Assembly (NCBI GenBank): GCA_046317855.1 | Contig: JBKCVM010000019.1 | Coordinates: 1 to 59,985 of the forward strand | Origin: Oligoflexia bacterium | Lineage (GTDB): Bacteria; Bdellovibrionota; UBA1018 | Reading direction: 5' to 3' | DNA: 59,985 bases | Shown: piece by piece, positions 20,976 to 41,559 of the stretch | How positions within the stretch are numbered: the stretch's first letter is position 1 | How the letters are laid out: each line of letters opens with the position of its first letter | The notes under the pieces: model-generated | What the model was told of the DNA's origin: nothing | Seen by the model: only the letters and a program-made list of their open reading frames with translations | Database searches by the model: none | Translations under genes and position numbers: made by a program

Positions 20976-21620
20976 TTACTTTCTCCTCGCCTTCAGCTCA
21001 AAGAAGACAACGGGGCGGCCCGCCTCATCCTTCTGATTGGTAACGTCCTGCTGTTGTACATCCGCAATCAGTTCTGATTCTGAGAGCTTTTTGGTGAAGT
21101 CCGAAACTTGGTTGAAATCGAGAGCAGCGCCTTGAAAGTCGACATCTTGCCCCTGCATCGAGATTCCTCTCAGCCAAGCCTCAGGAGGAATGGCTCCAGA
21201 GATCATTTTAAGGAGCCTCACGTTTAAATCCCTACCCTCACTCAGCTTCACAATGGTCTCAAGTTTAAGCCGAATGACTTTCTCGTCCGAATCAAGGGAC
21301 TTCTTAATTTCATCGTACTCTTTGGTCTTGGTGAGTGAGGCCTGCAACTCAGCCTTGCGAGCTTGGAGTTTCTGATTCTCCTCAACCACTTTGGATAAAA
21401 GCGCAGATTTTTGTCCCTCGACTGTATAGTTCACCCCAAAAATCACAATCGCAGAGAGCAAAACCACCTTGAGCGGACCTGCAGCCATTTCAGAAAGCGC
21501 TGATCCAGACCCCGAGCCGACGCCAGTCAGCGCTGACAAAGCGGACATCGAAGTCGTCGACGTCCCAGACGCAGTCGTAATGTGCGAAGTCTTTTTAAGC
21601 GCCAAATTGATCTTAATCAT
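20976..21620 (-). CDS. pilN: type IVa pilus assembly protein PilN
   Basis: MIKINL N-terminal motif, TM, coiled coil, IPPEAWLRGI, QGAALDFNQVSDF. Confidence 0.9.
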   Translation of the reverse strand: MIKINLALKKTSHITTASGTSTTSMSALSALTGVGSGSGSALSEMAAGPLKVVLLSAIVIFGVNYTVEGQKSALLSKVVEENQKLQARKAELQASLTKTKEYDEIKKSLDSDEKVIRLKLETIVKLSEGRDLNVRLLKMISGAIPPEAWLRGISMQGQDVDFQGAALDFNQVSDFTKKLSESELIADVQQQDVTNQKDEAGRPVVFFELKARRK

Positions 21621-22696
21621 TTGGCTGCTCCTGCTCTAAATGCCAGGCCGATCGGCACCGCCGCCACTGGGCCGATAGAAGCAACATATTCTGCCGTGAA
21701 CATGGCCGGATCATACGAAATAGCATTAAAAGGATTCATGATCTGCGTTGGCAAACCGGCAATCTCCTCGACCACGCGCGAGAGATGAGGCACCTGGGCC
21801 GAACCCCCGCAGAGCACTAAGTAATTGACCGGCGGACCACTTGAGGATGCGGAGTAGAAATCCAAAGTGCGCTTGATCTCCCGAGCCACATTTTCAGCGT
21901 AGACCTGAGTGAGGTCATTTACCTCTTGCGGCACGACTCCACCGGATGCCCCGGTTTTGAGTGTCTCGGCGTCAGCAAACGGGAGATTGAGATGCCTCTG
22001 AATTTCGGCGGTGAGATTCATTCCGCCCAAAGCACTGTCCTTAGTGAAGACCGGAGCGCCATCATGCAAGATCGCTACTTTAGTGGAGGTGGCGCCGATA
22101 TCAATGATGGCTGCTGCCTCACCGGGCTGAAGCGGGTAATTGAACTCAAATGCGTTCTGAATAGCAAAGTAATCCACATCCATGATCGCAGGCTCAAGTC
22201 CCGCATCTGAAATACAAGCCATGTACGACTCAAGAATAGAACGCTTAATGGCCACCAAAAGAACGTCCGCTCGCTTTTCTTTTGAATAAGAAAGCAATTG
22301 ATAGTCCATGACGACTTCGGACGCATCAAATGGCAAATACTGTTCTGCCTCCCAGAAGACTTGATCCTGCAGCTCCTTAATATTGGGGGCCTCAATCTGC
22401 ATGCGCTTGATGATGCAAGAATTTCCTGAAATCGAGGCGCAAACCTTACGAGTCTTGAGCTGCATGGCTCCCACCAGTTGACGGAGGTGTTCGGTCACCG
22501 CAACGGGATTCACAATTTCTCGATTCACAATCGCATCTTGCGGAAGAGCCACCATTCCAAAATGCAAAAGCCTAGTATTGCTCTTTGAACCACCGAGCTC
22601 TACGAGCTTGATTGCGGACGAGCCGATGCTTAGCCCGATTGAGGACTTGGGAGCACCTGAAAAAAGTCCACTGAAGATTGACGCAATCCCTGCCAC
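21617..22696 (-). CDS. pilM: type IVa pilus assembly protein PilM (actin-like)
   Basis: Start re-called to GTG 22696. IGLSIGSSAIKLVEL, EAEQYLPF, IIDIGATST, LCGGSA, VPIGLA. Confidence 0.93.
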   Translation of the reverse strand: MAGIASIFSGLFSGAPKSSIGLSIGSSAIKLVELGGSKSNTRLLHFGMVALPQDAIVNREIVNPVAVTEHLRQLVGAMQLKTRKVCASISGNSCIIKRMQIEAPNIKELQDQVFWEAEQYLPFDASEVVMDYQLLSYSKEKRADVLLVAIKRSILESYMACISDAGLEPAIMDVDYFAIQNAFEFNYPLQPGEAAAIIDIGATSTKVAILHDGAPVFTKDSALGGMNLTAEIQRHLNLPFADAETLKTGASGGVVPQEVNDLTQVYAENVAREIKRTLDFYSASSSGPPVNYLVLCGGSAQVPHLSRVVEEIAGLPTQIMNPFNAISYDPAMFTAEYVASIGPVAAVPIGLAFRAGAAK

Positions 22697-22728
22697 GCCG
22701 CCTGCTTTCTCAAAATGAATACTGTTAA

Positions 22729-22756
22729 AGTTTACCGCGCTGGGCAAAACCTTCAA
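22729..22756 (-). promoter_or_regulatory. candidate sigma70 promoter for pilMNOPQ
   Basis: TTGAAG-N16-TAAACT in the gap upstream of pilM. Confidence 0.5.
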
Positions 22757-22766
22757 CTGATCGCAG

Positions 22767-23432
22767 CTATTCGAAGGAGATTTCTGCCGAGGGTCCCCGA
22801 AGCAGGAGAATGGCATGCCGCTCGATGTCGACCGTCAATGCTTTGTCGGTTTGTGGCAGGTCCTTTCCTATAGAGTCCGGTTCTAGAGATTCACCCAGTG
22901 CAGGAACAATCACAAATCCAGCAACACTCTCCATCTGGGGAGTTTGACTGCTCCCAGCATAAGGATCGTAGCAGAATTCTTGGAGGAGGCCGGTGATCCC
23001 AAGCTCCCGACCTCGCCCCGGATCCAACCAAACCAAGCGGTCGCGACGGGGGTCTTCGGCCAACAGGCGTACCATCCGGTCGAGTTCAAATTTTCCAGAT
23101 TTACAATCTTGTCCCCACTCCACCTTAAGGAGGAGCGGCTCGCTCGGATCAATAGTCACCCTCAGAGCCTGCTTTCTCTCTCCGGCTTGGCGCTTCATCC
23201 GGCCTACCTGCTCTGCCAGCTCTCGTGTCGCCTTAAGTGCCAACCACTGCGGGCTCCGGTCTATCACGATCGGAATCGCCGATAGTCCAATAAAAACGAG
23301 GAGCCCCCCCAGCAGGGCCCACCGTTTTTTGCGCCTCAATCTTGCCTCGCGCTTTTCCCAGAGCTCGTAGTGTTCCCACTCTGCCTTGGACCAGCGCTCT
23401 TCTGGAGAATCTGTCTCATGAATTGGGCACAT
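22767..23432 (-). CDS. membrane-anchored FimT/GspH-like protein lacking a prepilin cleavage site
   Basis: Charged N-terminus, one TM, then ATRELAEQVGRMKRQAGERKQALRV, resembling the FimT/GspH alpha1-C pattern; two Cys. Confidence 0.55.
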   Translation of the reverse strand: MCPIHETDSPEERWSKAEWEHYELWEKREARLRRKKRWALLGGLLVFIGLSAIPIVIDRSPQWLALKATRELAEQVGRMKRQAGERKQALRVTIDPSEPLLLKVEWGQDCKSGKFELDRMVRLLAEDPRRDRLVWLDPGRGRELGITGLLQEFCYDPYAGSSQTPQMESVAGFVIVPALGESLEPDSIGKDLPQTDKALTVDIERHAILLLRGPSAEISFE

Positions 23433-24218: not shown

Positions 24219-25091
24219 TTAAGACTCCCTCCGCTCAAGGAGCAGCCCGGCAAGCACCAAGAGCAGCAGCGCCCAGGCGCCCGCATAGAGCACCCCATTC
24301 AAGAGGTAGCTGGGAGCAATCGGAAGTCCGTAAGTGACCTTCAGACCTAGATTGAAATGCTCAAAGTTGGGAACCGCCATCGAAACTGCATTGAGCATCC
24401 CTTTGACGAGTATCGACTGTTGCTTGACTGCGAGTATCCTCAGCTGCGAACAGTTAATTCCGACCAAGTAAGTGCCCAAAGTCATCATGACTGCGAGGGA
24501 AGTAGTCGAAAAGCTCGAAAAGAAAATCGCCACTGCAGCAAGCACCAGCGACTGAAGAGCCAGCAAAACCAGCGCCCAGCCGACCGTGGGCGTGACTGGA
24601 GACTGGCCCTCTGACAAAAGGTGCAGGACCAGCAAATAGCCTCCTGATAGCAGAGCTGAGTTCAAAAGAAGGACCCACTTGAGTCCAGTAAATTTTCCGA
24701 GCAAAAATTGCAGACGAGTGATGGGGCGGGTCAGCGCCACCAAGATCGTTCGACGTTCAAACTCCCTGGCCAGCATGGCGGAACCCACGAGCACCGACAA
24801 CAGGCCGTTGCTCAAGGCAATTGCAGTGAGGCCGAAGTCCAGGACCACCCGCTCGGGCCGGATGAAGGTCACGCGCGAAGCAAGCACGCCCACGCCGAAC
24901 AAAAGCAGGCTGATCACCACTGTGTTGTAGAGCACCTTGTCTCTTAGAATCTCACGAAAAGTCACACTCCCCACAGCAAGCACGACTCTCAAAAAAGATG
25001 CTGGGCGCGCAGTTTGGACTGAAGGCGATCTTAAAGATGAGGATGCCGGGTGCACACCACGGATTTTGTAGGATGATCGGACCTCGGGCAA
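24219..25091 (-). CDS. pilI: ABC transporter permease, PilI-like
   Basis: TFREILRDKVLY, REFERRTILVALTRPITR..FLLGK, PNFEHFNL; multiple TMs. Start uncertain (TTG 25091 or GTG 25055). Confidence 0.82.
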   Translation of the reverse strand: MPEVRSSYKIRGVHPASSSLRSPSVQTARPASFLRVVLAVGSVTFREILRDKVLYNTVVISLLLFGVGVLASRVTFIRPERVVLDFGLTAIALSNGLLSVLVGSAMLAREFERRTILVALTRPITRLQFLLGKFTGLKWVLLLNSALLSGGYLLVLHLLSEGQSPVTPTVGWALVLLALQSLVLAAVAIFFSSFSTTSLAVMMTLGTYLVGINCSQLRILAVKQQSILVKGMLNAVSMAVPNFEHFNLGLKVTYGLPIAPSYLLNGVLYAGAWALLLLVLAGLLLERRES

Positions 25092-25136
25092 TCCCCTTTT
25101 TTTACGAATAGTTTTTGGCTACTCTCGGAGCTCAAC

Positions 25137-26048
25137 ATGCTCGAGATCTCACACGTATCGCAAGCGTTTCGGAGCGGCTTCTGGCTCAAACTCGTGCCCG
25201 TTCTGCACGATGTTTCGCTCACGGTACCCAAGGGCTCGATCACTGGATTTTTGGGTCCAAATGGTGCCGGAAAAACCACGTTGATTCATCTCATCATGTC
25301 AATTCGTAGGCCTCGCGCCGGCCGACTCACCTTGGCTGGTATGGATGTGTCCAAACCCGAGGCCAGGCTCAAGATGGGATACCTGCCCGAGCGACCGTAT
25401 TTTTACGAACACCTGACAGGCGAGCAGCTCTTATACTTTTTTGGCAGGCTCTCAGGGCTCCCAGACGGCGAGATCGCTTCTCGCATTCCAGCGGTTCTTG
25501 ATCGGGTGGGCATGTCCCATGCCCGGAACAAAGAACTCAGAGCCTACTCCAAGGGCATGCTCCAACGCATCGGCATTGCACAGGCCATTTTGGGCGACCC
25601 CGAATTTTTGGTGCTCGATGAACCCATGAGCGGACTCGATCCTTTTGGGCGTAAAGAAATCCGGGAGCTCATCACCGACCTCGGTGCCGAGGGGCGCACT
25701 ATTTTTTTCAGCTCGCACATCATTCCGGACGTTGAGTCCATCTGTGACCGGGTTGCCCTCATCCAAAAGGGACGCCTCATCGGGAGTGGGCCCATCCGTA
25801 AACTTCTGGGCCGCGATGCGCAGTCGATCGAAGTCGCATTTTTTGGGTTGGACGAGGCCTCAGCAAAGGGTGTGGCCCCGCAAGGCTGGATCCGGCTCCA
25901 GAAAACGCCTGATGGCCTCTGGCGTGGTTACCTTGAAAAGGCGGACCAAGTGAACCCAACAGCCCAGAAGATTCTGTCGACTGGAGGAGCATTAGTTGAA
26001 ATCACGCCACAGCGTCCATCCCTTGAGGAATGGTTCACCCGCGCGTAG
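25137..26048 (+). CDS. pilH: ABC transporter ATP-binding protein, PilH-like
   Basis: Walker A GPNGAGKT, signature YSKGMLQR, LVLDEPMSGLDP, SSH. Located in the pil cluster but on the opposite strand. Confidence 0.88.
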   Translation: MLEISHVSQAFRSGFWLKLVPVLHDVSLTVPKGSITGFLGPNGAGKTTLIHLIMSIRRPRAGRLTLAGMDVSKPEARLKMGYLPERPYFYEHLTGEQLLYFFGRLSGLPDGEIASRIPAVLDRVGMSHARNKELRAYSKGMLQRIGIAQAILGDPEFLVLDEPMSGLDPFGRKEIRELITDLGAEGRTIFFSSHIIPDVESICDRVALIQKGRLIGSGPIRKLLGRDAQSIEVAFFGLDEASAKGVAPQGWIRLQKTPDGLWRGYLEKADQVNPTAQKILSTGGALVEITPQRPSLEEWFTRA

Positions 26049-26052
26049 CTTC

Positions 26053-26092
26053 AAAAATAAGGGGCCCCTCTAGCTTTCGCCAGAGAGGCCCC
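26053..26092 (-). terminator. Rho-independent terminator of pilA
   Basis: Minus-strand RNA GGGGCCUCUCUGGC-GAAA-GCUAGAGGGGCCCC forms a 14-bp stem (two GU pairs), followed by UUAUUUUU. Confidence 0.88.
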
Positions 26093-26114
26093 AAATCTTC
26101 ATACAAACTGCTTT

Positions 26115-26675
26115 TTAGCGACAGTCCGTACCAGTGACAGAACAGGTATTATTGACAACCTGAAGTTCATTAATCGTAAATTGGTCGAGATTAGCCGTTG
26201 CAGCCTTTGTTAAATTGGCGATGGCGCCCATGACAAAAGTGGATGCCCCCGTCGCAGCATTACCATGCGCTGTGGCAAGCGCTGTAGCGGTCATAGCTGT
26301 GTCAGTATCCGTCTGTGAAAAGAAGGTTTCATTAACCGTTGCAGCATTACAGGTAGATCCATTTGTTACTGCTGTGGCGTAGGCGTTTCCAACCATGTAA
26401 AGTCTCCTGCCAGCAGGAGCCGCAACACCGATGGCAGCCAGGCAGTCCGTATAACCGATTGCAGTCGGCTCGACCCTCCAAGCTTGCTCCGCCGTAAAAA
26501 TCGCACCCAGAGCCACCTTGGCTTCACTCTGCTTCGCTTTGTTCTGAAACTTTGAATACTGCGGCACCGCTACAGCTGCCAAGATCCCAATGATCGCCAC
26601 CACCACCATCAGCTCGATTAAGCTGAAACCCGAGTGGTTAGATTTTAATTTGAAATTTTGCGTAGAAATCTTCAT
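26115..26675 (-). CDS. pilA: type IVa major pilin
   Basis: Start re-called to ATG 26675 (GGAGAGGGG SD). Class III signal ...NHSG|FSLIELMVVVAIIGILAAVAVP with E5; KAKQSEAK; four Cys; about 170-aa mature pilin with its own terminator. Confidence 0.96.
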   Translation of the reverse strand: MKISTQNFKLKSNHSGFSLIELMVVVAIIGILAAVAVPQYSKFQNKAKQSEAKVALGAIFTAEQAWRVEPTAIGYTDCLAAIGVAAPAGRRLYMVGNAYATAVTNGSTCNAATVNETFFSQTDTDTAMTATALATAHGNAATGASTFVMGAIANLTKAATANLDQFTINELQVVNNTCSVTGTDCR

Positions 26676-26717
26676 ACGTTCCCCTCTCCAAGGACATTGC
26701 CCAAAGGTTATTTCAAT

Positions 26718-26745
26718 ATGGTACACCCGACCCCTTGAAAAACAA
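26718..26745 (-). promoter_or_regulatory. candidate sigma70-like promoter for pilA
   Basis: TTGTTT-N16-TACCAT. No GG-N10-GC sigma54 motif was found in the pilA-pilG gap. Confidence 0.35.
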
Positions 26746-26771
26746 GGCGTCTTTGCCTCAACCTAAGACCC

Positions 26772-27647
26772 GTGACCCAAGCCCCCCAGATCACTCGGAT
26801 TTCAACCGCCCCCCTGCTCAAACTTTTGACAGTAGCAGCCCTCGCTGCAGCCACCGCCCTACTGGGTTCGAAACTCCGAACCTCCGACACCGCCTGGATT
26901 GAGCCGCCCGCCCACATTGAGCAGGAGCTCGACCCCAAGCTTATAGAGATCGCAAGCCTGGGCCACCTGCCCTCGTGGGTCGATGCAGTGCTGATCAGAA
27001 GCTTTGCAGACCCGGCCTACGACCCCGTTTTGCCCGGCACGCATCCGCCCCTCTACTACGAGCTCAAGCTAGCTACTGCACTCGATCCCTATTTTTATGA
27101 ACTTTACTACTACGGTGCCTCGATCCTTTCGATCATTAGGAGAGATGGGGCCGGAGCTGCAGAGCTCCTCGAGCGTGCGCACAACCAAATCCAAAGCGGG
27201 GCTTTCCAAGAACAAGGCTGGCAGCTTGAACTGTTTCGAGGCTACAACGCACTCTTTGAGCTCCAAGACGGAGCCACCGCAGCCCAGGCATTTGAAACTG
27301 CAGCCAGGCTTCCTCACTCACCGCCCTATATCAAAACCCTCGCCCAATCGCTCACGACACCCGAAGGTCGCTATGTGGCTGCCCGCAGGTCTTTTGAGAC
27401 TTTGCTGAAGATAAAAAACGACCCAGAAACTCAGCGCATCTTAGAAGAACGAAACCAAGCCCTAGAAACCTCTGAGCGGCTTTACAAAATCAACCAGGCT
27501 TTTCTGGAATGGCTTGGAAAAAGAAAACCCGACGCACAGCTTTTTGACCGCTTTCGGGGATCAGGCTACGCGGAGTTGCGCTGGGACGAGGCGCAGGGCC
27601 GAGTCGAGACGATTGCCCCACGGCAAGAGCTCAAAGGCTTCTACTGA
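26772..27647 (+). CDS. pilG: PilG-like (deltaproteobacterial type) TPR protein
   Basis: N-terminal TM; LATALDPYFYELYYYGASILS and GYNALFEL...AAQAFETAARLP resemble Myxococcus/Bdellovibrio PilG; adjacent to pilA. Confidence 0.65.
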   Translation: MTQAPQITRISTAPLLKLLTVAALAAATALLGSKLRTSDTAWIEPPAHIEQELDPKLIEIASLGHLPSWVDAVLIRSFADPAYDPVLPGTHPPLYYELKLATALDPYFYELYYYGASILSIIRRDGAGAAELLERAHNQIQSGAFQEQGWQLELFRGYNALFELQDGATAAQAFETAARLPHSPPYIKTLAQSLTTPEGRYVAARRSFETLLKIKNDPETQRILEERNQALETSERLYKINQAFLEWLGKRKPDAQLFDRFRGSGYAELRWDEAQGRVETIAPRQELKGFY

Positions 27648-28591
27648 TTTTTAGAAATCCTGGCACGCGGCACCTGCAGCAACCGCGCGGCCTGATCCTG
27701 ACTGCCCTTTGAGAGAGCAAGCGCGCGTAGAACCATCTCACGCTCGACACGGGCCAAAAAAGTTTCAAGAGACACTGGTCCCCTCGAGAGATCCGGAAAC
27801 TCCACTCCCGCACTCGGAGCCCCCTTTCCAGAGGGTTCATCCATCCTGAGCGCGCCCTCGAGCGAGGCTTGAGTGATTTCTGTTCCGGACTCAAAGGCCA
27901 CAGCACGTTCGATGGTGTTCTCAAGCTCTCTAATGTTTCCAGGCCAGCGGTGCGATTCTAGCAACTTCAGCGCAGCGGCATCAATCGTCATCGTCTCTTT
28001 TGAAAATTTCTCGGCAAACTTTTTCACAAAGTGCCGAGCAAGCAACGCGACATCTCCCTTTCGGTCTCGGAGTGCAGGAGTTTCAAGCATGATTACATTG
28101 AGCCGGTAATACAGGTCTTCTCTAAAGGTCCCCTTTTTGATCGCAGCCTCCAGATTTCGGTTGGTAGCCGCAACGATGCGCACATCGAGCTTGATATCTT
28201 CGTTACCTCCGACCCTCCGGATTACCCTTTCTTGAAGCGCTCGTAGCAACTTGACCTGCATCGGGAGAGGAAGCTCACCGATCTCATCAAGAAAAAGAGT
28301 TCCCCCATTTGCGACCTCAAAGAGTCCCGGCTTGTCTGCCACGGCTCCGGTAAAGCTGCCTTTCTTATGTCCAAAGAGCTCACTCTCAATGAGATTTTCA
28401 GGAATAGCGCCGCAATTCACGGCCACAAAGGGTTTAGCTTTGAGAGGACTCTGGTCGTGTAGCTCGCGGGCTACCAGCTCCTTGCCCGTACCGCTCTCAC
28501 CAATAATGAGAACACTTGAGCGAGTCGGAGCCACCCTTTCAATCAAACCTCTCAAGGTTTCGACTGCTTTTGACCTTCCAAGAATCCGCAC
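27641..28591 (-). CDS. pilR: PilR-like sigma54 activator lacking a receiver domain, HTH shortened
   Basis: GTG 28591 with a GGAG SD lies 1 nt after the pilC stop. GESGTGKE, GSFTGA, LFLDEIGE, FREDLYYRLNV and WPGNIRELEN are present; the protein begins at the linker that normally follows REC. Confidence 0.85.
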   Translation of the reverse strand: MRILGRSKAVETLRGLIERVAPTRSSVLIIGESGTGKELVARELHDQSPLKAKPFVAVNCGAIPENLIESELFGHKKGSFTGAVADKPGLFEVANGGTLFLDEIGELPLPMQVKLLRALQERVIRRVGGNEDIKLDVRIVAATNRNLEAAIKKGTFREDLYYRLNVIMLETPALRDRKGDVALLARHFVKKFAEKFSKETMTIDAAALKLLESHRWPGNIRELENTIERAVAFESGTEITQASLEGALRMDEPSGKGAPSAGVEFPDLSRGPVSLETFLARVEREMVLRALALSKGSQDQAARLLQVPRARISKNQ

Positions 28592-28592
28592 T

Positions 28593-29831
28593 TTAGACTC
28601 CGCCTGCCATCTTAAACATGGGCAGATACATCGCAATGAGCATGCCGGCTACCGTCCCCCCCAAAACCACGAGAATGATCGGTTCAATGAGCTTACCCAT
28701 CGCATTCACTACGGACTCTACTTCAGCCTCGTAAAAGTCAGCCACCTTCTCGAGCATTTTGTCGAGATTACCCGTAGCCTCTCCGACCCCGATCATCTGT
28801 ACCGCCATACGCGGAAACACACTCATTCCAGAAACAACCGCACCCAGGGTCTTGCCGACTTCAACCTCACCCCGAATTCTGGCAACCGATTGTGCGACCA
28901 CACTGCTATCGATCGTGTTTTTGCAGATCTCAACGGCGTCAACGAGATTGACGCCGGCAGCAAGCAGCGTCTGCATGGTTCTCGAAAATGCTGCAATACT
29001 ACTCTTCTGAATCAAGTCGCCAAAAAGCGGCAGACTAAACAAAAATCGGTCAAAAACCATTTTGCCCTCAGGGGTCTTGATAAACCTGTAAAAACTGAAC
29101 CCTAGGACCAACAGGCCACCCAACAGCGGCACAAAATGAGCTCCCAAAAAATGGGACGCATTGATCACGATTTGAGTAGGCAGGGGCAAACTCTCACCTT
29201 GGGCAGCGATCATGGCCTCAAACTTAGGGATAATAAAGACGAGCATCCCTACCACGATCACCAATCCCACCACGCTTACGACGGCAGGATACATGAGTGC
29301 GCCCACGACCATCTTACGCAAACGGTCGGTATCCTCAAGATACCTAGAAAGCCTCTTCAGCACGGTCTCGAGTGAACCTGAGGACTCTCCGGCTCTCACG
29401 AGAGAAACATAAATTTTTGAAAACCCCTTAGGATAGATCGAAAGGGCTTCCCAAAAAAAAGAGCCCTGATTCACCCGATCCCGAACATCCGTAAGGATTT
29501 GTTTCAAACCAGTATCGATCGTCTGCTCCGCTAAAATATCAAGCGCTTGAACCAGTGGAATACCCGCGCTGATCATCACTTGGAGTTGACGGGTAAAAAG
29601 AATCTTCTGCTTGAGGTTGAGTCCAGGCTGAGCAACCTGGGTCGAAAGGGTCAGAGTGAGGCCCCGCTTAATCCCAGAGCGGGTCTCCCCTCCCCGTTTT
29701 TTAGCAATACGTGTGGGTCGCACGCCTTGTTGGCGCAGACTCACCCGCACATCTCCCTCAGCTGGGGCGGTGATCGTGCCTGTGACTCTTTTTCCGGAGC
29801 GATCGACACCCTGATATTCAAAATCTGCCAT
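28593..29831 (-). CDS. pilC: type IV pilus inner-membrane platform protein
   Basis: FTRQLQVMISAGIPL, RAGESSGSLE, ALMYP, MIGVGEATGNLDKML, IAMYLPMF. Confidence 0.96.
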   Translation of the reverse strand: MADFEYQGVDRSGKRVTGTITAPAEGDVRVSLRQQGVRPTRIAKKRGGETRSGIKRGLTLTLSTQVAQPGLNLKQKILFTRQLQVMISAGIPLVQALDILAEQTIDTGLKQILTDVRDRVNQGSFFWEALSIYPKGFSKIYVSLVRAGESSGSLETVLKRLSRYLEDTDRLRKMVVGALMYPAVVSVVGLVIVVGMLVFIIPKFEAMIAAQGESLPLPTQIVINASHFLGAHFVPLLGGLLVLGFSFYRFIKTPEGKMVFDRFLFSLPLFGDLIQKSSIAAFSRTMQTLLAAGVNLVDAVEICKNTIDSSVVAQSVARIRGEVEVGKTLGAVVSGMSVFPRMAVQMIGVGEATGNLDKMLEKVADFYEAEVESVVNAMGKLIEPIILVVLGGTVAGMLIAMYLPMFKMAGGV

Positions 29832-29836: not shown

Positions 29837-30916
29837 TCACCCGGGCAGTGTCAGAAGCGTTTTTGAAAGCTCATCCGGCATGTACGAATGCTCGAGAGCC
29901 GCAGTCTTGCTCAGGGCCCCGCTCCGAACGAGCTGAACTAGACTCTGGTTCATGGTCAGCATCCCGCTCTCTTCTTGCCCAGACTGCATGGCGCTGTAGA
30001 TCTGGTGCAACTTGTCCTCACGAATCAGATTTCGAATGGCCATGTTGGGGACCATGACCTCAACTGCAGCCACTCGTCCCCCACCCTGCGTTCGAGGAAT
30101 CAGTTGCTGCGACACAATGCCCTGCAAGGTAAACGAAAGAAGCTGCCTGATCTGCGGCTGCTGGTGGGCCGGAAACACATTGATGATTCGGTTCACAGTC
30201 TGCACGGTGCTATTGGTATGAAGGGTCGCAAAAACCAAGTGCCCGGTCTCAGCCATCGTGAGAGCCATCTCAATCGTTTCAACGTCTCGAAGCTCCCCAA
30301 CCAGAACGAAATCAGGATCCTGTCTTAAGGCACGCTTGAGCGCTGCAGAAAAGCTTCGGGTATCTACTCCCACCTCGCGCTGATTGACCACGCATGACTT
30401 ATGCTGATGAATGAACTCGATCGGATCTTCAATGGTCAAGATATGCCCGTACTCTTCTCGATTCAAAATATCGAGCATCGCCGCGAGGGTGGTCGACTTA
30501 CCAGAACCTGTTGGTCCAGTCACCAGAACCAATCCGTTAGGGCGACGAATCACCTTTTTAAGCACTTGCGGCAAATTCAAAGAGTCAAAATCTGGGATTT
30601 GAAACGGAATCCGACGAAACACGCCAGCAATACCGCCCCGCTGATAGAAATAGTTTGCCCTAAAGCGCGCAATCTCTTTGATCCCAAAAGAAAAGTCGAT
30701 CTCCAGATTCTTTTCGAACTCTGCCTTCTGGGCGTCGGTCAGAACCGAGTAACACATCTCTTTTGTGTCCTGCGGGGTCAGGGCATCAGTCCTGACTTTG
30801 ACCATTCGACCCATGATTCTAAACTCGGGCGGAACCCCCACGGTGATATGCAAGTCAGAAGCATCTTGCTCGACCATGGCTCGCAAGTAGGACGAAATTC
30901 CAATCTTCTGGGTCAT
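29837..30916 (-). CDS. pilT: type IV pilus retraction ATPase
   Basis: ASDLH, GPTGSGKST, TIEDPIE, ALRQDPD, AETGHLVFATLHT, AIRNLIRE motif. Confidence 0.97.
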   Translation of the reverse strand: MTQKIGISSYLRAMVEQDASDLHITVGVPPEFRIMGRMVKVRTDALTPQDTKEMCYSVLTDAQKAEFEKNLEIDFSFGIKEIARFRANYFYQRGGIAGVFRRIPFQIPDFDSLNLPQVLKKVIRRPNGLVLVTGPTGSGKSTTLAAMLDILNREEYGHILTIEDPIEFIHQHKSCVVNQREVGVDTRSFSAALKRALRQDPDFVLVGELRDVETIEMALTMAETGHLVFATLHTNSTVQTVNRIINVFPAHQQPQIRQLLSFTLQGIVSQQLIPRTQGGGRVAAVEVMVPNMAIRNLIREDKLHQIYSAMQSGQEESGMLTMNQSLVQLVRSGALSKTAALEHSYMPDELSKTLLTLPG

Positions 30917-30950: not shown

Positions 30951-32654
30951 TCAAGACTCCATTGTGAGAGCCAACGCTTCCTCGAGCGTGGTACGTCCCT
31001 CAGCCACGCGTCCCAGGGCAGAGGCTCGCAAGGAACGCATTCCCTCAGTCAGTGCTTGCTTTCTCAGCTCAATCACCGACGCTCCCCGAAGCACCATTTC
31101 TTTTAACGTGGTCGAGAAATCGAGAACCTCATAAACCGCAATTCGGCCTTTGTAGCCCGAGTTATTACATTTTGAGCAGCCTCGACCCTTCATCGCCGTT
31201 GCACGACTAGCCTCATCCCGACTCATGCCAAGCTCCAGCAACTTTTCTACTGGGATCGTCACAGGGGCCTTACAGCTTGAACAGACCGTGCGCAGCAGCC
31301 GCTGCGCAACTACAGTGTTGAGTGCAGAAACTACGAGAAAGGGCTCAACACCCATGTTCATTAACCGAGTGATGGTACTGGGAGCATCATTGGTGTGTAA
31401 GGTCGAAAGCACCAGATGTCCCGTCAGTGCGGCTTGAATCGCTACTTCTGCCGTCTCGTAGTCACGAATCTCACCGACGAGTACGGTGTCCGGATCCTGG
31501 CGCAGCAGAGTTCTCAGAACCGCTGCGAAAGTAAGTCCGATATCTTTATTGGTCTGAACTTGGTTGATGCCCTCGAGATTGTATTCGACCGGATCCTCGA
31601 CAGTAGAGATGTTGTCCTGAACCGTATTGAGCTCTGAAAGTGCAGAATACAGCGTTGTTGTCTTACCGCTCCCCGTCGGGCCGGTCACTAAGACCATCCC
31701 ATTTGCCGAGTAAATGCCCTTCTTAAAGACCTCGAGCTGCTTGGATTCAAAACCTAGCTTCTTTAAATCCAACTGAAGGCTGCTCTTATTGAGCATACGC
31801 AGCACCACTTTTTCACCAAACAGAGTGGGCATCGAACTCACACGAAAGTCTACTTCTGTTCCGCCCACTTTGAGTTTGATGCGACCGTCCTGAGGGATGC
31901 GCGACTCCGCAATATCCATTCTGGACATGACCTTGAGCCGCGCCACTACCGCACGCTTCATTTCTAAAGGGACTTGAGAAACCTCAACCAGTGCGCCGTC
32001 GACGCGCATGCGTACCCTAAATCGTTTTTCATAGGGCTCGACATGAATATCACTGGCCATTCGACGAATCCCCTCGGCCAAGATGCTATTCACAAAGGCG
32101 ATCACGGGGCCATCGATGTCGCGATTTTCATCGATGTCATGGACTTGCACCTGCTCAATCACCAGTCCTTCGGTCTCGGCAGAGGTCTTGAGATCTTTTT
32201 TGAAGTTTTCAATAGCCGCACCCGCCAGAGATGCAGCTCCGTAGTACCGACTCATCGCTGAATCAAAGGCTGAAACAGAAGTCAGTACGAGCTCGACAGT
32301 GAGCTTGGTCGCAAACTTTACCTCTTCGATCTTTGATGCCTGAGTGGGATCCCAGGTAGCCATCACCAGGATGCCCTGGTTGGACTGAATCGGAATGGCA
32401 CCCACTTTGCGAGCCAGATCGGGAGGAACGAGCCTAAGCACTTCGGACGCCACTTCAAACTTGGCAAGATTGATGCTGGGAAGGCCGAACTTCTGGCTGA
32501 GATAGTGAAGCAATCGCACTTCGTCGACGACTTTAGCGTCGATCAAATGCTTGATGTGATCTTTGCCACCTTTACTGGCCTCGACCGCATCATTGAGCTG
32601 CGCTGCAGTAATGATCCGATCATTAGCCAAAAGCTGCGCAAGTGCGCGCGACAT
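30951..32654 (-). CDS. pilB: type IV pilus extension ATPase
   Basis: ASDIHVEP, PQDGR, GPTGSGKTT, VEDPVE, LRQDPD, tetracysteine CSSC...CSKC, GYKGR. Confidence 0.97.
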   Translation of the reverse strand: MSRALAQLLANDRIITAAQLNDAVEASKGGKDHIKHLIDAKVVDEVRLLHYLSQKFGLPSINLAKFEVASEVLRLVPPDLARKVGAIPIQSNQGILVMATWDPTQASKIEEVKFATKLTVELVLTSVSAFDSAMSRYYGAASLAGAAIENFKKDLKTSAETEGLVIEQVQVHDIDENRDIDGPVIAFVNSILAEGIRRMASDIHVEPYEKRFRVRMRVDGALVEVSQVPLEMKRAVVARLKVMSRMDIAESRIPQDGRIKLKVGGTEVDFRVSSMPTLFGEKVVLRMLNKSSLQLDLKKLGFESKQLEVFKKGIYSANGMVLVTGPTGSGKTTTLYSALSELNTVQDNISTVEDPVEYNLEGINQVQTNKDIGLTFAAVLRTLLRQDPDTVLVGEIRDYETAEVAIQAALTGHLVLSTLHTNDAPSTITRLMNMGVEPFLVVSALNTVVAQRLLRTVCSSCKAPVTIPVEKLLELGMSRDEASRATAMKGRGCSKCNNSGYKGRIAVYEVLDFSTTLKEMVLRGASVIELRKQALTEGMRSLRASALGRVAEGRTTLEEALALTMES

Positions 32655-35981: not shown

Positions 35982-37886
35982 TCACTGAGTTGCCCCAATC
36001 CGATCGATTTCGTCCAATAAACCAAGGAGCTTTGCCCGAGCCTCAGACTCGGTCAGCACGCCTGCATTCGTACCAAAGCGCACCCATTCACAATACTCTA
36101 GAATCTCGCAAATTCGCCGCCACTCGGATGGCTCGAGCCCAAGATCTTCTACTGCCTTTTTATAAATTTCCTCTCGAGAGAGCGCTCGCGCAGAAATCAT
36201 GAACTTTGAGAGGTGCTTGTCATCAATCCGTTGGCAGAGGCACTGAGCCAGTTGGTCATAAGCCCGCAGGACCTGTTCCCATGGCGCCGAAGCAACCTCA
36301 GACTTGGCAAAGCGCCTGAGTTCGTCGGAACTCCGAGCAGCATTCTTCTTCCAAATAGAAAGCCTCAAGCTGCGCAGTTTCTGCCACTTTCTTACGATCC
36401 GTCGGCCCAAAGAGGCTACCAGTAAGATTCCGCTCACCCCAAGAAGTGCTGCAAGGATCCAGCGAGCGATTTTTCGGGCGCTGACGGTCTCAGCGGCAGC
36501 ACCCTTCCACTCTTCTGGCAACAAATAGACCGGCACCAGCGGGCTGGGCGCCACACTGGGCTGAACTCCAGAGCTGGAAACACCAGCACCAGAAACGGCT
36601 ACGCCATTAAAAGAGGACGGCTCGAGGACATCAATGGAATGGCCTGCCGCAGTCAACGTGCGATAAGCGCGATTTTTTACAGAGAAAAAAGAAAACTCAG
36701 CCTGCGGAAGCGTGAGTTTACCGGGCTTACGCGGAATGATGAGCACCTCGAAAACTTTGGTGGACACGCCCCCCCGCGACGAAAGGACTTTTGATTTTGT
36801 CTCAAAAATCTCCACGTCCGCGGGCCATGCCACCTTGGGCTCGGTGATCGCCGCCACATTACCCATGCCTTCAACTTTCAGAGTCAGAGTCAGAGCCTCA
36901 TTTGCCCTGACCTGCGTGCGATCGACAGCTGAATCCAGTGAAAAGTCGCCTACACCACCTGTAAAGCTAGTGGGGCGGCCCTCGGTCGGCAGCGGGAGAA
37001 CCTCAAGTTCCAAGCGGTCGTTCCGATGACTCCATTCTCGCGGCTGGATCTGCTGAAAGAAGCTCTGAATCGGGTCATTCAGATCGATTCCTGCATCCGT
37101 TCCTGGATAGTAGTTTGCTTTGATCGCCATCGAATCCACAGGAAGCCGCCCTTCTTTGAGCGGATAAGCAGCATATCTTGCGAGCAAGGAGCGCTCGTAG
37201 GGAACCCCATCTACCACGACTGATTCGTCCTGAACTCTCTGGCCTAAAACCGGCAGTTCCAGATCCTCCCGCAGAAACCCATCCAAAATAGGGTACTTCT
37301 CAACCTGAATATTGAAGACTCGGCTGCGGCGATAAAGATAATAGCTCACGATCACTTGCTGACCTTTGTAAACTCGGCTTCGATCGAGCTCAGCACGAAC
37401 TGTAAAGGGCGGTCCCGAGACATTTTTCTTCATTCCTCGCAAACCCATGCCACCCCCACCATAGCGAGCTGGGGGCGGAGTACCCTGACCAGAGGCAGTC
37501 ACTTCCACTGAGAGAGGCGGATGCTGAAGCTGCTTGCCATTCACATCGACACGAATCTGAGAGATCTGCAGGCGACCCGTCTTTTTAGGCCTTAAAACTT
37601 TGGTCACTTTCTTGTTGTTACGCACCCCAAATTGGCCATTCTGATAGTACGATTCAACAAAGACGCTCGAATACTGATTCACCTCATCAAAATCAGGGGC
37701 ATCAAAGTGGGGTTCGCCAATCTGAAAATTGCCATCGGATTGGATAGAAAACTGTAACGAAACCGACTCATCCATCCCCACAAAGCCACGATCGACCGTC
37801 ACTTCCCAAGTTGAGTCATCAGCAAACGCCAGACTCAGTGCCAGAAGCGAAGCTACCGCAACTCCAATAATCCGTCGCTGATCCAT
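35982..37886 (-). CDS. batD: BatD-family protein
   Basis: Start re-called to ATG 37886. Signal peptide, Ig-like BatD repeats (YVGQ-like YKGQQV, GGVGDFSL, LTLKVEGMGN), C-terminal TM; operon context. Confidence 0.85.
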   Translation of the reverse strand: MDQRRIIGVAVASLLALSLAFADDSTWEVTVDRGFVGMDESVSLQFSIQSDGNFQIGEPHFDAPDFDEVNQYSSVFVESYYQNGQFGVRNNKKVTKVLRPKKTGRLQISQIRVDVNGKQLQHPPLSVEVTASGQGTPPPARYGGGGMGLRGMKKNVSGPPFTVRAELDRSRVYKGQQVIVSYYLYRRSRVFNIQVEKYPILDGFLREDLELPVLGQRVQDESVVVDGVPYERSLLARYAAYPLKEGRLPVDSMAIKANYYPGTDAGIDLNDPIQSFFQQIQPREWSHRNDRLELEVLPLPTEGRPTSFTGGVGDFSLDSAVDRTQVRANEALTLTLKVEGMGNVAAITEPKVAWPADVEIFETKSKVLSSRGGVSTKVFEVLIIPRKPGKLTLPQAEFSFFSVKNRAYRTLTAAGHSIDVLEPSSFNGVAVSGAGVSSSGVQPSVAPSPLVPVYLLPEEWKGAAAETVSARKIARWILAALLGVSGILLVASLGRRIVRKWQKLRSLRLSIWKKNAARSSDELRRFAKSEVASAPWEQVLRAYDQLAQCLCQRIDDKHLSKFMISARALSREEIYKKAVEDLGLEPSEWRRICEILEYCEWVRFGTNAGVLTESEARAKLLGLLDEIDRIGATQ

Positions 37887-37905
37887 TTTGCTTGGTCCTA
37901 CCCCT

Positions 37906-39639
37906 CTACCAGTCTCGACCACTCTGAGAGTTCGCATTTCCGCGCTGCTTTTTCAAACGAGCCTGAAGCTGTTTTTCTCGAGCTGAAATTTCAGCCATCA
38001 CACGCTCCGAGTCCTCAGGAGAGAGCTTTTCTGATCTGAAAGCTCTTCTGCGACTGACGGATGGATCCTCATAAGACTGGCCCTGAGACTTGGGCTCTGG
38101 CTGAGACTGGCTGCCCTGTTGTTGCTGCTTTTGCTTTTGCTTTTGCTGCTGCTGCTGCTGATCTTGCTCCTGTTTTTGCTGCTGCAGGGCCTCGATCCGC
38201 TTTCGTGCCTGGACCTCAAGCTCGGGATCACCGGCAAGTCTAGCCATACGAATGGACTCAGCAAAAGCACGGATTGCCTGACCATGCTGCCGGGCTTTTT
38301 CATGCGCAGCACCCAGATTATACAAAGAAACTCCGGAGAGCTGCGGATTGCCCTGTTGTTTGGCCCTCTGGGTAGCCTCGTCAAAGCTCTTTACAGCCTT
38401 TTCGGTTGCTCCACTTTGGAGCTCGGCTACACCCTGATTGAAAGTGGGCTCCACTTTTTCAGGATCGCTTGCCTGAGCCTCTGAGAAATTCTTGCGCGCC
38501 AGTTCAAGGTCTTTTTCATCGAAAGCGGCCACACCCTGTCGATTCTTGAGGTAACTTTTGAGTGTCGAGGCTTGAGCGTTCACTCCTCCGAACAAAAACA
38601 GAATAACGACCCACAGACGCACCAACGGAATCCACCACTCCACCAGCAACAGAATTAATCCGATTCCAACGAAGAGCTGAAATCGCTCGGTTGGAATCAC
38701 CACCTTTCGCTCAGCAAGCTGGGTGCGATCCAAAGCTCCCAACGCACCGAGTAACTCCTCTCGCTCCGACTCTGAATCACTGACTGTCCAGTAGCGTCCG
38801 CCAGAGGCCTGGGCCACCGCTTCTAATGTTTTTGGTTCAAGTCGGCTCTGCACTACTTCTCTACCCTGCCGTTTGTAGCCCATGAGCTGCCCCTGCTCGT
38901 CGCGCAACGGAATCGGCCCTCCCCGCTGCGACCCCACTCCAAGCACAAACAGTTGGATGCCTTTTTCTTTGAGCTTTGAGGCGATCCGGGCAGCCTCACC
39001 CTCGTGGTCCTCCCCATCGGTCACCAAAAGAATGGCTCGCGTGGGTGCCCCCTTTACAGAAGCCGAGGGATCCGTGTTCTGAGCGCCACGCTCAAGAGAA
39101 GCGAGCGCTGTTTCTAGACCCAGTCCAATGTCCGTCCCCTGATTGCCAAGCGAGCCGGGATTCAAAACTTCTAAGACTTCTTGAACGTAATTCAGGTCAT
39201 TGGTGAGCGGGCATGCCACGTAAGTGCTTGCAGCAAATGCAACCACCCCCACCCGGTCACCCGCCAGCGGCTCAAGAAGCCGACTGATAAAGTGGCGAGC
39301 TTTCTTAATTCGAGAGGGCACCACATCTTCCACATCCATGCTCCGAGAGAGATCCAGTACAACCATGAGGTCGAGCCCCGTTGCACCGATGACCTCTTCG
39401 CGAGCGCCCCACTGAGGCCGGGCCAGTGCCGCCACAAGAAGCAGCATGCCCCCCAGCCAAAAGAAAAGCTTATGCTTACGAGCCGATAAATTAAGTTGTG
39501 GGATTAGCCGTTCAAAAAGAGCGGGAGAAAAGGCTTGAAACAAGGTCGCAAATCCACGGCGATACTGAAAAAGCGCAAAGAGACTCAATGCCACAGGAAT
39601 GAGCAGGAGCAGCAGAGCTGAAGGACTAGCCCATTTCAA
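37906..39639 (-). CDS. batB: BatB (VWA) - BatC (TPR) fusion
   Basis: Start re-called to TTG 39639 (GGAGG SD; overlaps the batA stop). LARPQWG, MIDAS DLSRSM, LVTDGEDHEG, then TPRs and a poly-Q linker. Confidence 0.85.
   Translation of the reverse strand: MKWASPSALLLLLIPVALSLFALFQYRRGFATLFQAFSPALFERLIPQLNLSARKHKLFFWLGGMLLLVAALARPQWGAREEVIGATGLDLMVVLDLSRSMDVEDVVPSRIKKARHFISRLLEPLAGDRVGVVAFAASTYVACPLTNDLNYVQEVLEVLNPGSLGNQGTDIGLGLETALASLERGAQNTDPSASVKGAPTRAILLVTDGEDHEGEAARIASKLKEKGIQLFVLGVGSQRGGPIPLRDEQGQLMGYKRQGREVVQSRLEPKTLEAVAQASGGRYWTVSDSESEREELLGALGALDRTQLAERKVVIPTERFQLFVGIGLILLLVEWWIPLVRLWVVILFLFGGVNAQASTLKSYLKNRQGVAAFDEKDLELARKNFSEAQASDPEKVEPTFNQGVAELQSGATEKAVKSFDEATQRAKQQGNPQLSGVSLYNLGAAHEKARQHGQAIRAFAESIRMARLAGDPELEVQARKRIEALQQQKQEQDQQQQQQKQKQKQQQQGSQSQPEPKSQGQSYEDPSVSRRRAFRSEKLSPEDSERVMAEISAREKQLQARLKKQRGNANSQSGRDW
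38117..38185 (-). repeat. CAG/CAA-rich low-complexity tract encoding poly-Q/QK linker
   Basis: QQQKQEQDQQQQQQKQKQKQQQQ; coordinates approximate. Confidence 0.8.
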
Positions 39640-40619
39640 AACGCAAACCTCCAAAGAGTGACAGAAAGCGCAAACTCCAAAAAAAGCAGCGCAATTCCAA
39701 GAGTCAGCGGCTTTGCAAATCGCTCCTCGTATCTCACGCGCTCGTTGGTCTTTACCTCGGTCTTTTCCATTTGGTCGATCTCTTTAAAGACCGAACCCAA
39801 CGTCCCCTCATCAGTGACTCGAAAAAACTTTCCACCGGTTACAGATGCAATTTTTTGAAGGAGCTCAGGATTCAGAGCATTGTCAAAATATTGATAGCTC
39901 GTCACAACGTTGCCCAGAATCCCTTGTGAACGGATCGGCAGTCGGACGCGCCCCTCCCTTCCAATCGCAATCGTGTAGACCCTAATCCCGTACCCCGAGG
40001 CAATGTCCCCCGCAGTCGCAGGATCGACCTGTCCCACATTGTTATCTCCATCGGTGAGCAAGATAATCACTCGGGTCTTTGCGGTGCTATTTCTCAATCG
40101 ATTGACGGCTAGAGAAAGACCGTCGCCAATTCCGGTGCCGTCTTTGAGCACGCCAATTTTGGCGTCACGCAGTGCTCTGAGGACCAAGCCATAATCCAAA
40201 GTGGGAGGCGCAAGGGTCAGGGGCTCGCCAGAAAAAATCACAAAACCAATCCGGTCATCCTGTCGCCCCTGGATGAATGACTCCATGGTGCTCTTAGCCA
40301 CCTCAAAGCGGGAGCGTTCTGAAAGATCCTCGATGTTCATACTGGCCGAGACGTCCATGACCATCATGATGTCAATTCCACTCACCGTTCTCTCGGACTG
40401 ATGAAAGCTGGCCTGAGGTCGAGCCATCGCCACAAAGACCAGGGCTAGGCCGGCAAGCCTGATTGCAGCGAGATAGAGCTGTGGGTTTTTTGCAGAAGCT
40501 TTTGTGTCAATCGGTAAAGAAAACGGAAGTGGAGGCGGGGTATTGCGCCTAACCCAGAACCGGTAAAGGAGCAAAAGTGGAACCCAACCCAAGAGCCACT
40601 GCCACGTCTCAAGTCGCAC
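39636..40619 (-). CDS. batA: BatA VWA domain protein
   Basis: Start re-called to GTG 40619 (GGAGG SD). MARPQ, GIDIMMVMDVSASM, GTGIGDGL, ILLTDGDNNVG, YTIAIG. Confidence 0.9.
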   Translation of the reverse strand: MRLETWQWLLGWVPLLLLYRFWVRRNTPPPLPFSLPIDTKASAKNPQLYLAAIRLAGLALVFVAMARPQASFHQSERTVSGIDIMMVMDVSASMNIEDLSERSRFEVAKSTMESFIQGRQDDRIGFVIFSGEPLTLAPPTLDYGLVLRALRDAKIGVLKDGTGIGDGLSLAVNRLRNSTAKTRVIILLTDGDNNVGQVDPATAGDIASGYGIRVYTIAIGREGRVRLPIRSQGILGNVVTSYQYFDNALNPELLQKIASVTGGKFFRVTDEGTLGSVFKEIDQMEKTEVKTNERVRYEERFAKPLTLGIALLFLEFALSVTLWRFAF

Positions 40620-41559
40620 TCGTGACCTCCGAGCGACGGGTACGCTGGATCCAAACTCTTGCGTCGCCAAGGACACGCAAGGGCTCATCATCCTCGGGGG
40701 CGGGTACAAAGTCTGTGAACTTCACTCGGTCCAAGGCCTCAAAGAGAGATGAAACCCTTTGAATCAGCTCTGGTGACAGCCCAGAAGAATCCAAAGCGCG
40801 CAACATTTCTCGAGTAGTGAAATCAGTCGCTGCAATACCATAACGTTTTTCAATGTAGACTTTGAGTGTCTCAGAGACTCCAAAGTAGTGCTTTTTATGC
40901 TGATTTTTTTTGTAAAATGCCTGCTTTTCAATTTTCTGAAGCGCAGCCAATGCCTCTTCGTGTTCTAAGATTTTTTTGGTCACGGCCCCAAGAGCACCGG
41001 TGAGAGGCCTTCTTTTGAGCTGGCGTGCTCTTCTCCAAAGCCAGTACCCGCCTGCAACGCTCCCTAACCCAAGCAGGGCAATCCCGCCCCAAAGCCAATG
41101 CCGTGGAAATCGCATCCTCAATGGCGGAACAAACTCTACAGGAGGCTTTTCATCCCCACCCGCTCCCGCCACTTCAAATTGAAGAGCTCGAGTGCGCCCA
41201 ATCACTTTGCCGTCGGGATCCTCGACCTGCAACTCGGGCAAAGTCAAACTACCCGACTTGATGGGAATCATTGAAAATGCACTCATGATGTCGTCTTTGG
41301 GATGAGAAAAGACCTCCCAACCCTGCTCACTCAAAGGCTTGGCCCCCTTGAGAGGGGCAATGATCGCAGCGCGAGTGTCAGGCTTTTTTTCGCCAATCCA
41401 TTGAAAACGAATGACATCCCCCACCAAGATGGGCGGATCTATCTTCTGCGACTGCGGGGCAGAATAGTATCGCTGGACTTCATACACGGGCTGGTCGGTC
41501 GGCTCGAGTGCCCAAACCTGGATAGCGATCAAGAGTCCCAGCGCATAACCTTTTGTCAT
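40609..41559 (-). CDS. Bat-operon membrane protein (BatD-like Ig domain, TM, DUF4381-like tail)
   Basis: Signal, beta-rich domain, TM, LKVYIEKRYGIAATDFTTREML, LDRVKFTDF; typical position between DUF58 and batA. Confidence 0.75.
   Translation of the reverse strand: MTKGYALGLLIAIQVWALEPTDQPVYEVQRYYSAPQSQKIDPPILVGDVIRFQWIGEKKPDTRAAIIAPLKGAKPLSEQGWEVFSHPKDDIMSAFSMIPIKSGSLTLPELQVEDPDGKVIGRTRALQFEVAGAGGDEKPPVEFVPPLRMRFPRHWLWGGIALLGLGSVAGGYWLWRRARQLKRRPLTGALGAVTKKILEHEEALAALQKIEKQAFYKKNQHKKHYFGVSETLKVYIEKRYGIAATDFTTREMLRALDSSGLSPELIQRVSSLFEALDRVKFTDFVPAPEDDEPLRVLGDARVWIQRTRRSEVTSAT

Follow-up and report, generated by a model that had tools for sequence, protein, structure and literature searches.

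Pilus-linked activators of the PilR type (Myxococcus, Geobacter, Pseudomonas and Bdellovibrio bacteriovorus HD100) share a slot after pilB-pilT-pilC, and in HD100 the published gene order is pilB-pilT1-pilC-pilS-pilR (PMC4237445). While HD100 has pilS-pilR, Peredibacter and Bacteriovorax marinus are published as lacking both. A second group of comparable proteins are the bacterial enhancer-binding proteins (bEBPs) without a regulatory domain, PspF and HrpR/HrpS, which begin directly at the AAA+ domain and continue through a lid to a C-terminal helix-turn-helix (HTH). According to a 2020 review (PMC7175178), no bEBP other than FleT of Cereibacter (Rhodobacter) sphaeroides is known to lack both the regulatory (R) and the DNA-binding (D) domain. 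Here we describe a stretch of 59,985 nucleotides from an Oligoflexia bacterium (assembly GCA_046317855.1, contig JBKCVM010000019.1), in which the slot after pilC holds a PilR-derived sigma-54 activator with neither a receiver domain nor an adjacent pilS. This whole stretch, the 60-kb window, is the sequence of the source genome that was searched for pilS, receivers, partners and promoters.

The activator is encoded on the minus strand, a correction to a preliminary description of this DNA whose central observation, a receiver-less PilR coupled to pilC, is otherwise upheld. Its reading frame of 316 codons opens with a GTG (28591-28589) and closes with a TAG (27643-27641), and the following features were assigned to it:

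27641..28591, minus strand: receiver-less PilR-derived sigma-54 activator (bEBP), 316 aa, GTG start; from the open reading frame (ORF), Pfam, and an identical protein and junction in an independent contig.
28085..28585, minus strand: AAA+ sigma-54 interaction domain, aa 3-169; Pfam PF00158 (Sigma54_activat), 1.1e-73.
27824..28069, minus strand: AAA+ lid, aa 175-256, with sensor II NIRELEN; Pfam PF25601 (AAA_lid_14), 1.2e-25.
27647..27769, minus strand: C-terminal three-helix Fis-type domain, aa 275-315; from HTH_8, AlphaFold2 (AF2) helices and a comparison of tails.

The AAA+ domain begins two residues after the protein start, and the Pfam scan of the protein found AAA+, lid and HTH_8 and no match to Response_reg. 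The HTH_8 match (aa 279-309) is marginal but passing, at 26.5 bits against a cut-off of 22. A receiver could not be encoded in frame, because the activator frame is open for only 15 codons further, inside pilC (the longest extension, from a TTG at 28636, adds 15 aa), and the start residue is the same in orthologues. As the preliminary description had stated, the catalytic and sigma-54-contact motifs are intact: Walker A (GESGTGKE at residue 31), GSFTGA (aa 78-83; genomic 28343-28360, minus strand), Walker B (LFLDEI at 99), sensor I (AATN at 141), the R-finger (FREDLYYRL at 156) and sensor II (NIRELEN at 219). An alignment of 40 sequences of relatives has 76 invariant columns, all catalytic motifs among them, and the GSFTGA loop is invariant in 118 of 118 receiver-less sequences. 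Moreover, an AF2 model (predicted local distance difference test, pLDDT, of 83) superposes on the AAA+ domains of NtrC1, FleQ and ZraR with a TM-score (target) of 0.87-0.94. None of the NCBIfam equivalog models reaches its cut-off for this protein. Its AAA+ domain, its motifs and its sigma-54-contact GSFTGA loop identify it as a bEBP.

This architecture, AAA+ followed by lid and C-terminal HTH with nothing ahead of the AAA+ domain, is that of PspF and HrpR/HrpS, and the earlier proposal of an undescribed system therefore overstates the case, since it belongs to a known class of bEBPs without a regulatory domain. The activator is not a PspF orthologue, however. It scores 269 bits with TIGR02974 and 233 with PRK11608, against cut-offs of 443.55 and 529, respectively, and PspF structures rank below FleQ, ZraR and NtrC1 in comparison with it. 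Unlike PspF and HrpR/S, it is embedded in a pilus motor operon and has no pspA- or hrpV-like gene nearby. Literature searches brought up no account of a receiver-less PilR, nor of the clade to which this protein belongs.

Upstream of the activator, and in the same direction, lie the genes of the pilus motor:

28592..28601, minus strand: pilC-activator junction; GGAG at 28601-28598, pilC stop TAA at 28595-28593, 1-nt spacer at 28592, then GTG.
28593..29831, minus strand: pilC, type IV pilus (T4P) platform protein, 412 aa; Pfam T2SSF, 4.1e-61; best NCBIfam match the Myxococcus-type PilC model.
29837..30916, minus strand: pilT, retraction ATPase, 359 aa; Pfam T2SSE and synteny with relatives.
30951..32654, minus strand: pilB, extension ATPase, 567 aa, heading the pilB-pilT-pilC-activator block; Pfam T2SSE and MshEN, and synteny.

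The 3' end of pilC (GGC GGA GTC TAA) contains a GGAG that lies 6 nt upstream of the activator GTG. The tight coupling to pilC that had been claimed from this Shine-Dalgarno-led GTG and its 1-nt spacing recurs among relatives, in which the junctions read TGATG, TAAATG or TGAnATG and the 3' end of pilC carries a GGAGG-like Shine-Dalgarno sequence. The gene order GSIII-ribF-pilB-pilT-pilC-activator was found in every context that we read (loci L001, L003, L004, L005 and L087 and the contig of P0002, the closest relative), with a pilC-activator gap of 0-1 nt or an overlap of 1 nt. Start position, Shine-Dalgarno sequence and coupling are kept across lineages in which pilC identity falls to 45%. Receiver-less orthologues after pilC, which the preliminary description had proposed to look for in related genomes, were thus present in each of these contexts; in the pairs with L001 and L087, the ratio of nonsynonymous to synonymous substitution (dN/dS, omega) is below about 0.1. 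As a separate observation, the independent Logan contig L088, which encodes an identical activator, has its pilC (221-1459) called as two ORFs of 148 and 256 aa; this split call suggests a frameshift or stop in the assembly or a population variant.

Remnants of the missing partners were sought with Bdellovibrionales PilS and PilR receiver queries (tblastn against the 60-kb window), of which the best match had E = 0.28, and with Pfam, where HisKA, HATPase_c and Response_reg had no match among the 45 window ORFs scanned. Seven further large window ORFs (pilMNOPQ, ribF and GSIII) were identified by synteny only. The claim that pilS is missing therefore holds in the form of a negative search within the window, and the Pfam, tblastn and spacing results together bear out a PilR descendant without a receiver or an adjacent pilS.

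The absence of the receiver is not peculiar to one genome, as a rewiring of this locus alone would have been. Among the 120 best matches from a search of 5.8 billion proteins (54-81% identity), 116 of the 117 full-length clusters have no receiver; their lengths are 304-371 aa, with an extension of 0-14 aa before the AAA+ domain in the receiver-less relatives. Their source labels are Bdellovibrionales, Oligoflexia or Bdellovibrionota metagenome-assembled genomes (MAGs), and automatic annotation names these receiver-less proteins 'two-component response regulator PilR'. The remaining cluster, P0016 (460 aa, with a receiver, 69% identical), was considered as a surviving ancestral form and rejected as an assembly chimera, because its identity jumps from ~45% up to the ESELFGH motif to ~97% after it and because an NtrB-type C-terminus lies upstream. 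Its 2.5-kb metagenome scaffold (L006) joins a proteobacterial ntrB-3'/ntrC-5' segment to a receiver-less activator at ESELFGH.

The receiver-containing comparison set was drawn from a contig scan dominated by the generic NCGAIPEN motif, with relatives of at most 54% identity. In 16 loci from Bdellovibrionaceae, Bdellovibrionales, Pseudobdellovibrio, an Oligoflexia MAG, Myxococcota, Bradymonadales (Lujinxingia) and Desulfuromonadales-like genomes, pilB-pilT-pilC is followed by ~2 kb before the start of the PilR AAA+ domain. This interval is occupied by pilS (534 aa in L008, starting 3 nt past pilC) and a receiver and linker of ~142 aa. In a neighbour-joining (NJ) tree of the AAA+/lid core (260 columns), the receiver-less sequences come out as a single bipartition in 197 of 200 bootstraps and the window activator groups among pil-linked PilRs; its sister relation to the PilR of Bdellovibrionaceae is weak (57/200). 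At 50% identity the clade collapses into few representatives among 88,776 bEBP clusters. Judged by synteny and tree, the activator and the PilR of pil clusters share common descent, and the loss of the receiver is, on the same comparisons, an ancient trait common to a whole clade of uncultured Bdellovibrionota. The simplest history to which these data point is a single ancient deletion that sets in at the start of pilS and reaches the final residue of the linker, because the receiver-less sequences form a single clade and because pilC-pilS-pilR is kept at the same position in Bdellovibrionaceae, Myxococcota and Desulfuromonadales.

Likeness to PilR extends to the sequence of the protein: the AAA+ core shares 47-55% identity with pil-linked PilRs, the GSFTGA variant also occurs in 9 of 23 receiver-containing bEBPs from related loci (most of them pil-linked), and the HTH sequence of PilR is shared with basal members of the receiver-less clade. 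The differences are the missing receiver, linker, adjacent pilS and sigma-54 promoter at pilA, and a recognition helix that is shortened in the subclade of the window. The activator is PilR by descent and not by definition, since receiver, PilS and sigma-54 pilin promoter are all missing.

With moderate confidence, we propose that the gene encodes a functional sigma-54 activator derived from PilR, permanently without receiver, linker and pilS, that acts independently of phosphorylation and at a level tied to pilBTC. One deletion in the ancestor of a large uncultured freshwater branch of Bdellovibrionota would have removed the segment from the pilC stop to the first PilR AAA+ residues, and the remaining AAA+-lid-HTH protein would have become the last, translationally coupled cistron of pilB-pilT-pilC. 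With no receiver, gating by phosphorylation should be impossible, and the dose of the activator would be set by pilBTC transcription and translation, possibly also by a protein acting in trans. The linker of receiver-containing relatives has a conserved LxxENxxL(K/R)xxL signature, and we take the LxxENxxL(K/R) pattern of the lost linker to resemble the coiled-coil linker of the DctD/NtrC1 type. In DctD and NtrC1 the receiver represses ring assembly, and receiver deletions are constitutively active. Since the lost linker appears to be of this type, the truncated activator would probably be active by default, by analogy with these deletions and with the natural case of PspF. The deletion ends immediately ahead of the hhGxS motif that opens the AAA+ domain, and in this, as in the loss of the linker, it resembles the engineered receiver deletions of DctD and NtrC1; here, however, the deletion is natural, ancient and fixed.

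Several points weigh against this proposal. In NtrC-type activators removal of the receiver inactivates the protein, and constitutive activity is here argued from analogy, with the linker signature as a lead. DNA binding by the activator may persist, since its C-terminal domain passes HTH_8 and is predicted to fold as three helices. A scan of the whole window returned no convincing sigma-54 promoter and hence no target. Finally, two receiver-containing loci of Bdellovibrionota (L008 and L011) also have no -24/-12 promoter at the adjacent pilin, so that the uncoupling of pilA from sigma-54 may be older than the loss of the receiver and not specific to it.

A different possibility is that the activator is controlled in trans, either by an anti-activator of the PspA, HrpV or FleN type or within mixed rings of the HrpR/S or FleQ/FleT type, and a pilus component that signals the state of assembly might serve as the partner. 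We regard this as unlikely, if quite conceivable: all characterised bEBPs without a regulatory domain work in this way (review PMC7175178), and the window encodes at least one further bEBP as well as conserved uncharacterised neighbours, among them a 221-aa ORF between pilD and pilM and the following ORF:

26772..27647, plus strand: convergent 291-aa ORF at the PilG position, with a hydrophobic segment at the N-terminus and no more than faint TPR hints; stop overlapping that of the activator by 7 nt.

Pfam scans, however, revealed no PspA-, HrpV- or FleN-like gene in the cluster, and the PilG-position ORF, which has no Pfam match over threshold, varies in position and orientation between subclades. 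Its homologues abut the activator convergently in L001, L002, L006 and L087, while in L005 the homologue heads an operon with ABC_tran, ABC2 and pilD, the operon being co-directional in L003 and L005. In the window (24219-27647), the PilG-position ORF and a PilH-like ABC ATPase (25137-26048) are on the plus strand, and pilA, a PilI-like ABC-2 permease, pilD and other pil genes are on the minus strand. Given these mixed strands, as against one co-directional operon in L003 and L005, small inversions have occurred in the subclade of the window. The further bEBP, which the preliminary description missed, runs off the left edge of the window (1-969, plus strand); it matches Sigma54_activat from profile position 25, contains GAFTGA as well as a full-length HTH_8, and shares 49% identity with the pil-linked activator.

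The activator might also still be a regulator of pilin, activating pilA or other pil genes without phosphorylation control. It is encoded one gene from pilA and within the pil cluster, and a basal subgroup of the clade keeps the canonical HTH GGVKKKAAxLLGITFRSIRYRL. The features at stake are:

26115..26675, minus strand: major pilin gene, pilA-like, 186 aa, ATG at 26675; N_methyl motif; best NCBIfam match the Myxococcus-type PilA model, under its cut-off.
26718..26747, minus strand: putative sigma-70-like pilA promoter; TTGTTT at 26745-26740, 16-nt spacer, TACCAT at 26723-26718.

The pilin gene had been taken for FimT-like, and scores best with NCBIfam as a PilA-type major pilin. The -35 element of its promoter lies within a 15-bp palindrome, CCTTGTTTTTCAAGG (26747-26733, minus strand), and the promoter block is conserved in L001, L002 and L087 despite diverged flanks. 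The palindrome may be an operator for some regulator, and as a subclade-specific element at the pilA promoter it would suit a pilin regulator; it is absent upstream of pilA in other subclades. As a repeated regulatory motif it was rejected, being present in a single copy in the window and not above chance. Beside pilA, L001 and L087 have an extra gene of 705-725 aa past the pilin gene that is absent from the window.

Promoters of the pilin were compared by scanning the 250 nt upstream of pil-cluster major pilins against TGGCAC-N5-TTGCW (maximum score 20.5). In all six receiver-less loci the best GG-N10-GC match scored at most 15 or there was none, whereas scores of 18-20.5, at -64 to -129, were reached in all six receiver-containing loci from outside Bdellovibrionota in which a major pilin is adjacent (L014, L015, L017, L018, L019 and L057, from Myxococcota, Bradymonadales and Desulfuromonadales-like genomes). 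In place of the -24/-12 element, a sigma-70-like -35/-10 is conserved at pilA, and there is no -24/-12 element before the pil genes of the window; moreover, the recognition helix is altered here and absent in the sister subclade. We therefore consider a surviving pilin regulator improbable. The neighbouring pilA is probably no target of the activator, because of the conserved sigma-70-type promoter, the lack of a -24/-12 element and the shortened, changed recognition helix, which fits the earlier suggestion of targets other than pilA.

With regard to other targets, matches to the sigma-54 consensus with at most two mismatches number 28 in the window against 32 expected, and a weighted scan of the 300 nt upstream of every window ORF gave nothing convincing, with none before any pil gene. 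The sole near-perfect site of the window, at 32396 (plus strand), was rejected as a promoter, lying antisense inside pilB. Perfect TGGCAC-N5-TTGCT sites do occur in relatives, at L003 1168-1183 and L004 2758-2773 (both minus strand; ~0.03 expected by chance), 14-45 nt upstream of two unrelated, functionally uncharacterised secreted- or lipoprotein genes beside the pil cluster. The L004 site is so near to the annotated ATG that the mRNA would be leaderless or the start is mis-called, and GACAC repeats lie upstream of it. These perfect sites and the second bEBP of the window indicate that sigma-54 is in use in the clade, and we propose that the target sigma-54 promoter or promoters of the activator lie outside the 60-kb window.

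The DNA-binding end of the protein, whose alteration the preliminary description overlooked, has a history of its own. We sorted the 117 full-length receiver-less clusters into four tail classes. About 65 clusters have the canonical PilR tail GGVKKKAAxLLGITFRSIRYRLKKLG, in the same style as receiver-containing PilR. Another 14-16, including the window protein, end in QAARLLQxxRxRIxxxxK-stop, a shorter helix without the FRSxRYR motif; ~28 end directly past HTH helix 2, and a few others have different degenerate tails. The helices of the window protein in the AF2 model span residues 275-293, 298-305 and 309-315, the last being of seven residues. The sister subclade that ends after helix 2 (L003 8001-8942 and clusters such as P0037, P0047, P0097, P0116 and P0120) finishes in ...EEAKKLLT-stop. 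In L003 the early stop is genuine, with a terminator next and no frameshifted HTH remnant. By these alignments, the sister subclade is without both a regulatory domain and a recognition helix, and the window protein is an intermediate between the canonical PilR HTH and this helix-less state.

FleT is the natural comparison for such proteins: the sister subclade (P0037/L003, ~28 clusters) resembles it in having neither receiver nor recognition helix, and the window protein is part-way there. The window protein differs from FleT in that it keeps three predicted C-terminal helices and its HTH_8 match, there is no evidence of a FleQ-like partner, and both lineage and genomic context are others. 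A reading in keeping with this trend, to which we give rather little credence, is that the activator lineage is evolving toward enhancer-independent activators consisting only of the AAA+ part, with an activity set by the pilus machine and read out at distant sigma-54 promoters. The machine would then exert control either because the activator is strictly co-translated with PilC or because a pilus component sequesters it directly, and the abundance or state of the pilus motor would be read out at sigma-54 promoters such as those of the secreted or envelope genes in L003 and L004.

It is very improbable, and in effect refuted, that the gene is a functionless, decaying remnant of a 5'-truncated pilR. 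The loss of receiver and pilS and the faster evolution of the C-terminal part would agree with decay: against L001 and L087, identity is 53-58% in the C-terminal 60 residues, compared with 57-62% in the lid and 84-92% in the AAA+ domain. The activator has dN of 0.19-0.22 against L087 and L001, and with dS saturated (>2.3 or undefined) omega is below about 0.1, a bound and not an exact value, dS being saturated in every pair compared. This pattern is indistinguishable from that of pilC and pilT in the same pairs. Together with motifs that are invariant in 40 sequences and a start, Shine-Dalgarno sequence and coupling that outlast the divergence of pilC, these values place the gene under strong purifying selection and so exclude decay, in agreement with the earlier argument that this is not simple decay.

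An assembly artefact, in which a pilS-receiver segment was collapsed or mis-joined, has a negligible probability, for although the source is a metagenome assembly and one relative (P0016) is really chimeric, the junction recurs in runs and studies that are independent of one another, and no fewer than six divergent relatives share it. Many metagenomes of freshwater and lake water contain near-identical sequence. The junction between pilC and the activator is crossed colinearly by a 7.4-kb contig of one freshwater metagenome, by a contig of a different lake-water study and by a further Logan contig that encodes an identical protein. The independent assemblies thus speak against a collapsed or deleted pilS-REC (receiver) segment, the condition under which the preliminary description would have failed.

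Other features of the window were noted in passing. The pilM ORF (21617-22816, minus strand) is 399 aa long, whereas pilM of relatives has 338-360 aa, and it shares 50 nt with the 221-aa ORF ahead of it; the true pilM start is probably internal, because the ORF is overlong and because of this overlap. The 221-aa ORF itself (22767-23432, minus strand) has no Pfam match, and ORFs of 187-203 aa without Pfam match occupy its position in L001, L003 and L087, the match being one of position. A 430-aa protein (1817-3109, minus strand) strongly matches Pfam MATCAP (microtubule-associated tyrosine carboxypeptidase, 8.6e-116), a family name unexpected for a bacterium. Immediately upstream of a MoxR-DUF58-VWA-BatD (Bat-type) operon (35982-43458) there is a 1372-aa ORF (43430-47548, minus strand) for which Pfam gave no match at 1e-4.

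The locus adds to the bEBPs that have no regulatory domain, a group with very few members, and is of use as a source of natural minimal activators; it also corrects the automatic label of 'two-component response regulator PilR' under which these proteins are annotated. It would be a clean natural case of a two-component system dismantled, with kinase, receiver and linker gone in one step, and would offer a natural test of which bEBPs tolerate the loss of a receiver, those with repressive or those with activating receivers. The sister subclade would in turn add to the bEBPs without a DNA-binding domain and, if true, provide a second natural case besides FleT. For Bdellovibrionota, pilin expression is probably not under PilR/sigma-54 control. 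More generally, the available comparisons are consistent with an output ATPase that has long been retained and hard-wired to an operon once partly under its control, and whose DNA-binding helix was then eroded repeatedly.

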